This document shows positions 6,384-19,938 of a stretch of 64,000 nucleotides of DNA, one piece after another. This DNA is from a bacterium. GTDB lineage: Bacteria > Zhuqueibacterota > Zhuqueibacteria > Residuimicrobiales > Krinioviventaceae. Within the stretch, counting starts at the first letter, position 1, and each line of letters opens with the position of its first letter. The position numbers and the translations under genes were made by a program. The stretch spans positions 2,240,001 through 2,304,000 of the forward strand of contig CAXXMD010000003.1 in the NCBI GenBank assembly GCA_963675755.2, given 5' to 3'. The notes below the pieces were generated by a model. That model saw only the letters and a program-made list of their open reading frames with translations. It ran no database searches and was not told the DNA's origin.

Positions 6384-6608
6384 GTCAATCTCAAGTTGTT
6401 AGTTTTACTAGTTTATTAATGTATAAAGGATATACCTTACAATCAAGTATTTTATGTTTGTACTTTTAAAATTTCAAGAGGTTTCAGCAAATTACATATT
6501 TAATAATTTTTTACATTTCATTTTTCGTGGTTGCATTTGACAGATAAAATTTTAATATTTATGTGTGTGAATCTGTACCAAAACGTTTAGTCATGAAAGG
6601 GTAATACT

Positions 6609-8374: not shown

Positions 8375-9196
8375 TCAATTTATATTTCCAGTAAACATGA
8401 CATATGTGAAAAATGCATTATAGTCCGGTTTGTTTAATATACAGTCGGGCGACTGGTCTCTGGTGAGTTTGATAAATGTGTTCCAGGCATCTCTTGATAT
8501 ATGTTTTTGAGAATTTCCCCAACGCATATCAAACAAATCCAGCATAGCTGTACGCATTTCTGGTGACAAGGGAGCTGTAATTTGTTGCGTGTATGTATAC
8601 ATTTGAATTGATGTGAATCCGGCTTTTTTCAAGCTGGCCTGGGTGTTCATAAAGTGAGATTCTGGGGGCATGTTGTCTGTAAACGGTGCAATGCCATCCG
8701 GTGTGGCATTCAATTGTGCTTCTAACTGGGGGTAGCCGGGTAACAGGGTTTGAGATGCCCAGAACAATAAGGCGATTTGGGCATGGGGTTTACATATTCT
8801 GGCAATATTTTTATATAACGCTACAGGATCTTTTTCAGAATAGCCCAGGCAGTCCATACTGAATATGCAATCAAAAGAATGTTCTGAAAATTGGAGGTTA
8901 TAGATATCACCCTGTTGAAATGTAATACGGTCCATGTCTTTGGGTACGACATGTTGTTGCGCGTATTGCAGGAATACATCATTGATATCCATTGCCGTTA
9001 CTTTGCCATCTGGAATCGCGTTGGCAAGTGCAACAGCCTGATGCCCAATGCCGCAACCGGCATCCAGAATATGGCTGTCTGATTCAAGATGTAGATCTGT
9101 AATGGCTTTATGTGTTATGTCTTTTTTTAACGGAACACTCGTTTCCAGCAAACGGATGTATTCCTGGTTTTTTAGAATGGAATTTTTATTGTTCAT
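8375..9196 (-). CDS. Class I SAM-dependent methyltransferase
   Basis: ILDAGCGIG, AMDIN, QGDIYNLQFSEHSFDCIFS. Confidence 0.9.
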   Translation of the reverse strand: MNNKNSILKNQEYIRLLETSVPLKKDITHKAITDLHLESDSHILDAGCGIGHQAVALANAIPDGKVTAMDINDVFLQYAQQHVVPKDMDRITFQQGDIYNLQFSEHSFDCIFSMDCLGYSEKDPVALYKNIARICKPHAQIALLFWASQTLLPGYPQLEAQLNATPDGIAPFTDNMPPESHFMNTQASLKKAGFTSIQMYTYTQQITAPLSPEMRTAMLDLFDMRWGNSQKHISRDAWNTFIKLTRDQSPDCILNKPDYNAFFTYVMFTGNIN

Positions 9197-9202
9197 AATT
9201 TT

Positions 9203-9231
9203 AATATATATCAGACGGATTTAAAAGTCAA
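9203..9231 (-). promoter_or_regulatory. Sigma70-type promoter, probably producing a leaderless mRNA
   Basis: TTGACT-N17-TATATT, with the ATG (9196) only 6 nt downstream of the -10 box. Confidence 0.55.
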
Positions 9232-9263
9232 TAAACAAGAATTGTATAAATGAGAGGGGTTGT

Positions 9264-9304
9264 AAAAATAATGGCCGCAGTAAAAAAAGACTACTGCGGC
9301 CATT
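9264..9304 (-). terminator. Intrinsic terminator (13-bp perfect stem)
   Basis: AATGGCCGCAGTA (9270-82)/TACTGCGGCCATT (9292-304), followed by ATTTTT on the minus strand. Confidence 0.75.
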
Positions 9305-9436
9305 GAGGAGAGATTAGTTTTGTGATAACGGTTTTTCGTGTTCCATAACAGAATGGCGATTATCACATGATCATCAGGTTGTTGTCTAACCTCCCTATAT
9401 TGTAAACTGTTGTGTGCTATTTCCTTTGTAACTCTA
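9264..9436 (-). ncRNA. Candidate structured small RNA with sigma54-type promoter and intrinsic terminator
   Basis: Upstream CGGCACAGTCTTTGTA; helix 9386-95/9308-17 pairs fully only on the minus strand (G-U pairs); inner helix 9360-67/9321-28; perfect 13-bp hairpin 9270-9304 plus U-tail; no credible ORF. Confidence 0.55.
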
Positions 9437-9446
9437 CTTGTGTTAA

Positions 9447-9462
9447 TACAAAGACTGTGCCG
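9447..9462 (-). promoter_or_regulatory. Sigma54-type -24/-12 element
   Basis: CGGCACAGTCTTTGTA against consensus TGGCACGNNNNTTGCW; GG-N10-GT spacing. Confidence 0.6.
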
Positions 9463-9618
9463 TAATTTTTAAAACAATTTCATGCGCCTTAAGTATAATA
9501 ATAATAGATGTTTATTTGATTTCTGTGTTTTGTGCCTCCATAAAATGTGGCGCATTGGGGCATCAAATGGATTTTGAGATGTGGCGCGAGTGTCCCATTT
9601 ATGTGTGGATTAACCTGC

Positions 9619-9647
9619 TTGACAAAAAGCCCGAATCTTGTTATATT
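9619..9647 (+). promoter_or_regulatory. Sigma70-type promoter of the sbcD-like gene
   Basis: TTGACA-N17-TATATT with an extended TG. Confidence 0.7.
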
Positions 9648-9673
9648 CTATCATTGATTATTTTGGACATTTC

Positions 9674-10786
9674 ATGTATTTATTGCATTTTTCAGACACC
9701 CATCTCGGCTATTCTGAATATCATAAAATTGATCCTGACACGGGATTAAATCAGCGTGAACAGGATGTATACAATGCCTGGGAGCAGGTGATTGAAAATA
9801 TTTTACAGATCAGACCGGATGTTGTGCTGCACACCGGAGACCTGTTTCATACTCCACGACCCAGTAATCGGGCAATTCGCATTGCATTGGAGGGTATTCA
9901 ACGCATCAGCGATGCTGGCATACCTTTGGTAATCATTTCAGGAAACCATGAAACCCCCAGGATCAAATCAACAGGTTCCATTTTTGAATCTATTGCCTTA
10001 TTCCCCAATGTATATGCCGCGTATATCAGTGAATATAAGCGCTTTCGTATTGGAGACAGTGATTTTCATTGTGTACCCCATTGCTCCCTGTCTGAAGAGT
10101 TGGAAGCAGCATTTGATGCTGTGGAAACGGATGGCGCCAAATACAATGTGTTTTTAAGCCATGGCGCATGGACAGGAAAGCTGGATTACAGTATGGGCGA
10201 GTTTAACGAACAGCGAATTCCTGATGTGGCGCAAGCATTAAATATAGAATTCGATTATGTGGCGCTGGGGCATTATCACAAGCATCTGGATATAAATGAT
10301 ACGGTCAGCTATTGCGGTTCAACTGAACGTACAAGCTTTAATGAAGCGGGAAATACCTGTGGATATCTTTTGGTGCAACTCGAAAAAAAGACGCGTGAAT
10401 ACAAAGAGATTGTATCCCGGGCCATGTTCAAACCCAAGCCGGTGGATTGCCGGGACATGAGTGCGGCAGAGATATATAAATATCTTGAAGGCATGAACTC
10501 AACCGACATGGATGATGCCATGCTTAGCCTTGCGCTTGAAAACATAGATGAGCATACCTTTTTAAAATTGGATAGTAAAGAAATAGACGTCATTTTCAAA
10601 AATACATTTTATCTGCAAAAATCGGTTCAACGTATTACCGCAAATAATGAAAAGCGATTGCAGGATTCTCATATTGATTCTTTACCGGTAGAGTTTTCAC
10701 GCTATTTGGATAATGTGAGTAACGCAGAACTGGATAAAGAAAAATTGCTTGAACTTGGAAATCATTACCTGACACAATATATATAA
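9674..10786 (+). CDS. sbcD: SbcD/Mre11-family DNA repair nuclease
   Basis: HFSDTHLG, GDLFH, SGNHE, SHG, YVALGHYH, YCGSTERTSFNE. Start moved to ATG 9674, downstream of the promoter. Confidence 0.88.
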   Translation: MYLLHFSDTHLGYSEYHKIDPDTGLNQREQDVYNAWEQVIENILQIRPDVVLHTGDLFHTPRPSNRAIRIALEGIQRISDAGIPLVIISGNHETPRIKSTGSIFESIALFPNVYAAYISEYKRFRIGDSDFHCVPHCSLSEELEAAFDAVETDGAKYNVFLSHGAWTGKLDYSMGEFNEQRIPDVAQALNIEFDYVALGHYHKHLDINDTVSYCGSTERTSFNEAGNTCGYLLVQLEKKTREYKEIVSRAMFKPKPVDCRDMSAAEIYKYLEGMNSTDMDDAMLSLALENIDEHTFLKLDSKEIDVIFKNTFYLQKSVQRITANNEKRLQDSHIDSLPVEFSRYLDNVSNAELDKEKLLELGNHYLTQYI

Positions 10787-16890: not shown

Positions 16891-17042
16891 TTTGTTCCTC
16901 TAGAGTTTAATCAGCCAGCTGGTACCCAATACTTTGCCCCTATGATTTATAAAATAGTCAAAATCTTAAGAAAAGCAATGATTTTTTCTGTGTGATGTTG
17001 GAAATAAATGCGGCAGTAATCCGGTTTAATTGTAAATAAATC

Positions 17043-17093
17043 TTGACAATATATTTTTTTGTCTTAAATTATGACTATTACTATAGTATTTAT
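17043..17093 (+). promoter_or_regulatory. Sigma70 promoter with overlapping Rrf2/CymR-like operator
   Basis: TTGACA-N16-TAAATT, overlapped by AAATTATGACTATTACTATAGTATTTAT, an AT-rich imperfect palindrome resembling CymR/IscR boxes. Confidence 0.5.
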
Positions 17094-19860: not shown

Positions 19861-19889
19861 AACTATTTGTCATTTTGCTTAAATTGTGT

Positions 19890-19921
19890 ATATTGAAGCG
19901 GTGCAAAAACCGCTTCAATAT
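19890..19921. promoter_or_regulatory. 13-bp perfect inverted repeat between cysK and metX
   Basis: ATATTGAAGCGGT-gcaaaa-ACCGCTTCAATAT, overlapping a TTGTCA-N16-TATATT promoter-like element. Confidence 0.45.
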
Positions 19922-19938
19922 CATATTTTGGAAAACGT

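Follow-up and report, generated by a model that had tools for sequence, protein, structure and literature searches.

The 477-nt gap between a methyltransferase gene (8375-9196, minus strand) and an sbcD/Mre11-like gene (9674-10786, plus strand) in the 64-kb stretch of bacterial DNA analysed here (the window) appears to hold the two ends of a lost gene for a sigma-54 activator. Sequence analysis supports a discrete minus-strand unit of ~174 nt in which a non-coding body lies between a sigma-54-type promoter and an intrinsic terminator, and no minus-strand gene exists upstream that this terminator could serve. We propose that the region is a collapsed sigma-54 activator unit, probably retained as a genus-specific small RNA, and we give this statement as a whole about an even chance of being correct.

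The full element is present only in the genome of the window (G000; 6.48 Mb, 39-40% G+C) and in the genome of a congener (G001), where it is ~96% identical, as judged by BLAST in 61 genomes and by a covariance model in 121 genomes. Apart from these two, BLAST with the RNA returned a 28-nt chance match in G030. The covariance model gave matches with E <= 1 in six genomes, four of them outside the genus. The match in G026 covers the terminator only and occurs on both strands, the match in G071 is full-length and weak, with many non-standard pairs, and the match in G046 was counted by its E-value. The remaining match, in G017, consists of GGAG...CUCUCCUC followed by a terminator and is the 3′ end of a gene for an enhancer-binding protein (EBP), providing insight on the origin of the unit.

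An EBP gene at the same place in related genera

The G017 match lies 1.7 kb from the sbcD gene of that genome, divergent from it just as the unit is in the window, and forms the 3′ end of a gene for a 472-residue protein with REC, Sigma54_activat and HTH_8 domains. Orthologues of sbcD are present in 19/19 genomes of the family, and among the 17 genomes from other genera, 12 carry an NtrC-type EBP homologue (38-63% identical to the G017 protein) divergent beside sbcD. The other five loci comprise two that end at a contig edge and three without an EBP gene within 1.5 kb. The closest that G000 and G001 come to the G017 EBP is a match of 37% identity, which equals the paralogue background in G014 and G005 (36%; true orthologues there are 58-60% identical), so an orthologue is absent from the genus. 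The closest paralogues of the lost EBP in G000 are encoded at C3:2955238-2956626 and C2:1164445-1165761.

Both ends of the EBP gene can be followed into the window. When the sbcD-proximal regions were aligned (eight sequences from six genera), the AATATA...TCAAG block of the sbcD promoter was invariant in 8/8, as was the -24/-12 core GGCA.A.T.TTTG, and a TG-containing block aligned with TGGGACA-N5-GCCACA and the second GCGCCACAT of the window. The EBP promoter of G012, GGCACAGTCTTTG, has 13 nt identical to the window. In the relatives, the -24/-12 box stands 50-100 nt ahead of the EBP start, and the orthologous -12 boxes read TTGC, TTGT or TTGA. At the other end of the gene, the 11-nt CU-rich box AUCUCUCCUCA is invariant in 5/5 sequences (the window, G001 and the EBP 3′ untranslated regions (3′UTRs) of G017, G014 and G005, the last three being genomes of genus g5) and stands directly before the terminator, the stem core of which, GGCCG...CGGCC, is common to the unit and to the EBP terminators of the same three genomes. 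CU-rich tracts likewise precede the EBP terminators of G007 and G011. A 10-mer of the CU box has five copies in G000, and only the copy in the unit is followed by the GGCCG hairpin; at least two of the other three intergenic copies resemble the reverse complement of a ribosome-binding site with its start codon.

Based on the same position and orientation, the orthologous promoter and terminator, and the absent open reading frame (ORF), we consider it very likely that the unit is a collapsed EBP transcription unit. The initial annotation had suggested a stand-alone RNA family of unknown origin, and this suggestion is superseded, with the promoter, CU box and terminator being orthologous to the two ends of the EBP gene of the relatives. 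Its description of an anti-Shine-Dalgarno-like box needs a corresponding revision, in that the CU-rich AUCUCUCCUCA is present, but as an inherited 3′UTR element of the EBP gene. The sbcD of genus g5 is nearest to that of the window (62-67% identical, compared to 52-61% in more distant genera), and because the EBP gene occurs in both groups, loss in this genus is the parsimonious reading of this distribution. According to this model, the family ancestor would have carried an NtrC-type EBP gene divergent next to sbcD, and the loss of its ~1.4-kb ORF in this genus would have left the unit at 9467-9264 on the minus strand. The comparison shows what was kept: the -24/-12 promoter along with the activator region upstream of it, and the CU-rich box of the 3′UTR with its terminator, now ~130 nt apart.

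The interior of the unit was also considered as a coding remnant of the EBP N-terminus, as suggested by a MAFFT alignment that placed it on the first EBP codons. This claim was dropped because the controls were not significant: tblastn of four EBP N-termini against the gap gave a best score of 13.5 bits, where 200 shuffles averaged 14.8 bits for their best, and when the DNA of 9446-9326 was aligned locally with the two terminal portions (5′ and 3′) of each of four EBP genes, p ranged from 0.27 to 1.0. Separately, there are two copies of the 10-mer TCTCTCCTCA in G005, one shortly before the EBP -24 box (L020, ~2845) and the other in the EBP 3′UTR (L038), which might indicate a role of the box at the DNA level or in 5′-3′ pairing.

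The predicted promoter and the fold of the RNA

The sigma-54 (-24/-12) promoter is predicted at 9443-9467 on the minus strand, with GGCAC at 9461-9457, TTGT at 9451-9448 and a predicted start near 9437. A matrix was derived from the intergenic TGGCA-N6-TTGC sites of this genome and iterated with the candidate left out, and on this leave-one-out matrix the 25-mer 9467-9443 reaches 18.1 bits. The genome has 73 intergenic and 10 coding sites with scores at least this high, compared to two intergenic and seven coding sites in a reversed-sequence null, which puts false discovery at ~3%. With 73 intergenic sites against two in the null, the assignment as a predicted promoter is statistically well supported. 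A same-strand ORF start lies within 400 nt of 72 of the 73 high-scoring intergenic sites on a crude ORF map; four of these sites have a hairpin and U-run before the ORF, and the stem has at least 12 bp in three of them, the candidate included. The promoter differs from that of G001 at 1/25 nt. The genome also encodes numerous potential activators, with 34 matches to PF00158, of which 28 have E <= 1.6e-39.

Further upstream, a candidate activator sequence spans 9545-9597 on the minus strand and comprises TGGGACA-N5-GCCACA (9597-9580) and a second GCGCCACAT (9553-9545). GCGCCACAT is a 9-nt direct repeat with 34-nt spacing, ~110-160 nt upstream of the predicted start, and of its 25 copies in the genome the sole two intergenic ones are those upstream of the RNA. 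The relatives have TGTGGCA-N4-TGCCACA-type palindromes at the corresponding place. Neither GCGCCACAT nor TGTGGC...GCCACA-type palindromes were found to be shared upstream of the other 159 sigma-54 boxes in G000, with the palindrome scan covering the plus strand only. A different palindrome, TGTGGAG-TTT-CTCCACA (G000:C2:1164425-1164441), lies ~100 nt upstream of a sigma-54 box of 18.7 bits and adjoins a gene that ranks among the nearest paralogues of the lost EBP; it resembles the half-site found upstream of the RNA without being identical to it.

Should an activator still act on this promoter, sigma-54 RNA polymerase would start near 9437 and stop at the terminator, and the resulting non-coding RNA of ~174 nt would fold into a rod (P1, an 18-nt loop, P2 and an apical hairpin) followed by the terminator hairpin. 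The 5′ tail (9437-9397) is A/C-rich and predicted to be single-stranded, with low pair probabilities, and has three differences in 40 nt compared to G001. In P1, the 5′ strand AGGGAGGUUAG (9396-9386), which contains a Shine-Dalgarno-like motif and is identical in G001, pairs with CUAAUCUC-U-CCU (9317-9306) in the minimum free energy (MFE) fold; the 3′ strand together with the CU-rich box AUCUCUCCUCA (9314-9304) occupies 9317-9304. The asymmetric internal loop ACAACAACCUGAUGAUCA (9385-9368, 18 nt) is predicted to be unpaired and is identical in both species, which makes it a candidate interaction site. P2 (9367-9321) is formed by UGUGAUAAU (9367-9359) and GUUAUCACA (9329-9321), which include an 8-nt perfect inverted repeat, and encloses the apical hairpin P3 (9353-9335). 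P1 and P2 are found in both the MFE and centroid folds with pair probabilities of ~0.9. The apical hairpin is unstable, with UUCUGUU/AACA-GAA favoured in the window and CCAU/AUGG in G001. The terminator with its U-rich tail extends from 9304 to 9264 (stem 9304-9270) and has 14 pairs, seven of them G-C, and a 7-nt loop. Over the whole 177 nt, the folding energy corresponds to z = -4.6 (0/200 shuffles as good).

All the items that the initial annotation had described on this strand are present. The -24/-12-like box CGGCACAGTCTTTGTA, reading CGGCAC-N5-TTGTA, is present at 9462-9447 within the promoter described above, and an rpoN gene is present in the genome (PF04552, 206 bits). The proposed 10-bp helix corresponds to P1 and the nested helix to P2, and the perfect 13-bp terminator with its U-tail was recovered as 13 perfect pairs in the repeat search. 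The small CCAU/AUGG hairpin is the form preferred by G001, but not by the window. A layout similar to P1 is seen at the G017 mRNA end, where UGAGGAG pairs with CUCCUCA around a hairpin holding the stop codon; this single sequence hints that the P1-like helix may be old.

The unit corresponds to neither a catalogued RNA nor a gene. At the gathering threshold, Rfam gave no match in the whole 64-kb window, and at E <= 10 the best match over 8800-10000 was a plant small nucleolar RNA with an E-value of 1.8. Nor is any ORF in the gap conserved between the two species. The 51-codon GTG frame continues across the terminator, where a 1-nt indel in the loop shifts it in G001. The window sequence interrupts the 133-codon frame of G001 with two stops, and each of the four base differences that separate the species in the 10-codon AUG frame at 9346 alters the residue. 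Pfam searches with the frames crossing the region gave nothing significant (best E-value 0.05).

Probable retention as an RNA and the alternatives

Comparison of the window with G001 (97% alignable, 90.5% identical) suggests that the unit has been kept as an RNA. Identity is 78.6% at the third codon positions of 45 ORFs (n = 19,372) and 87.2% in intergenic DNA (n = 4,066), whereas the RNA (9264-9436) has eight differences in 173 nt (95.4% identity), compared to ~37 expected at the third-position rate (binomial P = 4.6e-10) and ~22 at the intergenic mean (P = 2.7e-4). The conserved block runs from the promoter to the terminator, and the spacers on both sides of it (9468-9535 and 9237-9269) are only ~76% identical. 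Five of the changes fall in the structured part, three in loops and two in helices (U-G to U-A in P2 and G-C to G-U in P3 in G001); both helix changes keep the pairing, and neither is a double change. The block has thus diverged four to five times slower than silent sites, which suggests retention as a small RNA rather than inert debris.

Alternatively, the unit might be just such debris, a promoter and a terminator left over from the deleted EBP gene, with a promoter that is silent for loss of its activator or a transcript that serves no purpose, and with an identity to G001 that reflects local rate variation or chance. We regard this as a possible, though not the preferred, explanation. The evidence on origin is identical for a relic and for a retained RNA, and a number of observations weigh against retention. 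In comparison with the consensus TGGCAC-N5-TTGCW, the GG and the spacing of the box fit, but its -12 element has GT instead of the canonical GC. The candidate activator region is 89% identical to G001, no better than average intergenic DNA, and other intergenic blocks in the window are equally or more conserved, with the RNA ranking third for conservation among the 11 long intergenic segments. The body fold is weak, as the 94 nt without the terminator give z = -2.5 (3/200) in the window and -2.0 (7/200) in G001. The plus strand folds equally well (z = -4.66), so the strand assignment rests on the promoter and the U-tail and not on folding energy. No homologue was found outside the genus; the unit occurs in only two genomes, too few for covariation, and shows no double compensatory changes. 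In the predicted fold, the CU-rich box is sequestered within P1. Hfq was not found in G000, a 98% complete genome. The sole RNA library among the public runs yielded two 151-nt contigs of a relative, which span 9536-9831 and leave 9264-9437 uncovered, and is uninformative either way; three other public runs compared were near-identical DNA, possibly from the source itself. The interior (~120 nt, 9446-9326) has no significant similarity to any part of the EBP genes of the relatives. Additionally, the lost EBP may have activated its own promoter, which would now be silent; in that case the unit would be dead and its conservation unexplained.

What speaks against an inert relic is the conservation itself, both in the small number of differences and in its confinement to a block bounded by promoter and terminator between poorly conserved flanks. 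The pairing is maintained at both helix substitutions. Likewise, the unusual -12 element is not isolated, as TTGT boxes recur among the high-scoring intergenic sites of the genome, and 11 of the 42 GGCAC-N5-TTGT matches are intergenic. Beyond simple retention, it is conceivable that a regulatory RNA gene was born from the collapse of a protein gene, an idea that we put forward tentatively. In the ancestral activator mRNA, the 3′UTR would already have contained a functional CU-rich (anti-Shine-Dalgarno) module. After the coding part was lost in this genus, this module would have become a stand-alone, sigma-54-controlled small RNA under another activator, its new 5′ half (the P1 5′ strand and P2) would have evolved to pair with and gate the CU box, and selection would have kept the promoter and the upstream sites.

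The position of the unit also raises the question of whether it serves the methyltransferase gene as a cis-acting leader, with the sigma-54 promoter driving the methyltransferase and the structure and terminator acting as a conditional attenuator under the control of a protein or ligand. The S-adenosylmethionine (SAM) methyltransferase coding sequence (9196-8375) lies downstream of the terminator on the same strand, the terminator ends 73 nt ahead of its ATG at 9196, and in G000 the distance between other sigma-54 sites and their ORF can reach ~370 nt. Like the RNA, the methyltransferase is restricted to the genus, with a match in 2/19 genomes of the family; synteny searches based on it gave one locus in genome contigs, that of the congener, and one in metagenome contigs, a paralogue with 29% identity. 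No Shine-Dalgarno sequence is present before the methyltransferase, which would also fit this reading, but a sigma-70-like promoter (TTGACT-17-TATATT, 10/12; 9231-9203) stands between the terminator and the ATG, in a stretch (9197-9236) that is identical to G001 at 40/40 nt. This own conserved promoter argues that the methyltransferase is a transcription unit separate from the RNA. Furthermore, no pairing competes with the terminator, since removal of its 3′ half left P1-P3 unchanged and offered extra pairing of only ~-3.5 kcal/mol, and no riboswitch family of Rfam matched. As parts that descend from the EBP gene, the CU box and the terminator did not evolve to serve the methyltransferase. Because nothing competes with the terminator, no riboswitch matches and the methyltransferase has its own conserved promoter, a leader role is unlikely, though some read-through may occur. 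The promoter-like site ends 6 nt ahead of the ATG, and this, together with the missing Shine-Dalgarno sequence, suggests that the methyltransferase mRNA may be leaderless.

If the unit is retained as a small RNA, its most likely action, though a speculative one, would be base pairing, either of the CU box with the Shine-Dalgarno regions of mRNAs or through the 18-nt unpaired loop. GGAGG-type ribosome-binding sites are strong in G000. We used RNAduplex to compare four segments of the RNA with 4,900 translation-start regions from a crude gene call, with 10 shuffles per segment run on a quarter of the start regions as controls. The best energies were -29.4, -22.7, -23.4 and -21.3 kcal/mol, within the shuffled range, so that this target search gave no signal for any of the four segments, a further point that counts against retention and would suit a relic.

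The initial annotation also proposed a protein sponge; in such a role, GGA or CA-rich motifs of the RNA would sequester CsrA or some other RNA-binding protein, or serve it as a decoy. CsrA is encoded in G000, and sigma-54-driven sponges such as CrcZ have been described (PMC8871633). The RNA has only three GGA motifs, in AAAGGAAAU, AGGGAGG and AUGGAAC; G001 has lost the first of them (AAGGCAAAU), and the predicted fold sequesters the second in P1. No CsrB/Rsm family of Rfam matched, and the failure to find Hfq in G000 also speaks against this role. Together, these observations make a protein-binding role very improbable.

As a predicted small RNA, the unit can be compared to known systems. GlmY, activated by GlrR, and Qrr1-5, activated by LuxO, are sigma-54-dependent small RNAs. 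Like these and CrcZ/CrcY, the unit is predicted to combine a non-coding body and an intrinsic terminator with a -24/-12 promoter that has an activator region upstream. It differs in that it matches no Rfam family and that Hfq was not found in its genome, and in that the activator gene is present in the known systems (adjacent in the case of CrcZ), whereas the adjacent one has been lost here. Small RNAs derived from 3′UTRs include CpxQ, SdhX and GlnZ, and a box directly upstream of a terminator is the usual layout of a 3′UTR-borne seed. The relatives of the window have a comparable short conserved box directly upstream of the EBP gene terminator; in G000, however, the parental ORF is gone, and transcription of the box would begin at the promoter that belonged to the gene itself. 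With gene remnants and pseudogenes, the unit shares an orthologous position, flanking signals and an absent ORF, but the block has changed far more slowly than silent sites and contains no recognisable coding fragment. The CrcZ/CrcY promoters depend on sigma-N and are activated by CbrB (PMC8871633). Genome rearrangement has been described to make or break small RNA genes (Raghavan et al., 2015; PMC4350180), and the case presented there is similar in that a lineage-specific intergenic region arising from rearrangement or deletion may bear a new small transcription unit. In that case a new sigma-70 promoter arose by point mutation, whereas here the promoter and terminator would have been inherited from one gene.

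If the RNA is made and used, the unit would clearly illustrate one natural way for a small RNA gene to originate, with an ORF deleted and its promoter fused to its own 3′UTR and terminator. This route would complement duplication, horizontal transfer, promoter birth by point mutation and 3′UTR processing. We did not meet it in the literature, in searches that were not designed to exclude it, and we make no claim that it is unpublished. The conservation across genera of a CU-rich box before the EBP terminator also means that the idea of a 3′UTR-borne regulator can be tested directly in the relatives. Should the RNA not be made, the unit is a useful warning that a perfect-looking combination of promoter, structure and terminator can be the two ends of a lost gene.

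Other features of the gap and the genome

On the plus strand, the divergent coding sequence at 9674-10786 was assigned as SbcD/Metallophos. It is preceded by a sigma-70-like promoter at 9619-9647 (TTGACA-17-TATATT, 11/12), which marks the left edge, itself conserved, of the shared intergenic layout. The unit is enclosed, between its -24 box and its terminator tail, by the arms of an imperfect inverted repeat of 17 nt (14/17; 9259-9275 and 9459-9475), which is probably a chance occurrence, as it is AT-rich and single-copy in the genome.

Three other intergenic blocks of the window exceed the RNA in identity between G000 and G001: 6384-6608 (98.8%), 16891-17070 (97.7%) and 19861-19938 (98.7%). 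No Rfam family matches any of them at the gathering score, and the second precedes genes for an Rrf2 regulator and for cysteine/methionine functions.

Many sigma-54 boxes in G000 (e.g., C2:315793 and C3:199089) have a spacer complementary to the bases just past the -12 element, for example ACCCCTTGCATAAGCAGGGGT, which gives hairpin potential across the start region. Two further boxes outside the window are of note. The first (18.1 bits; G000:C3:2819625, minus strand) is followed by an ORF-less unit of ~85 nt, which is G-rich at its 5′ end and contains two hairpins as well as a terminator; TTGCA-type repeats are found upstream, and an EBP gene is ~3 kb away. The second (21.7 bits; G000:C3:1454113, minus strand) is followed ~175-207 nt downstream by a 14-bp terminator that precedes the next ORF, making it another candidate for a sigma-54-driven non-coding unit.

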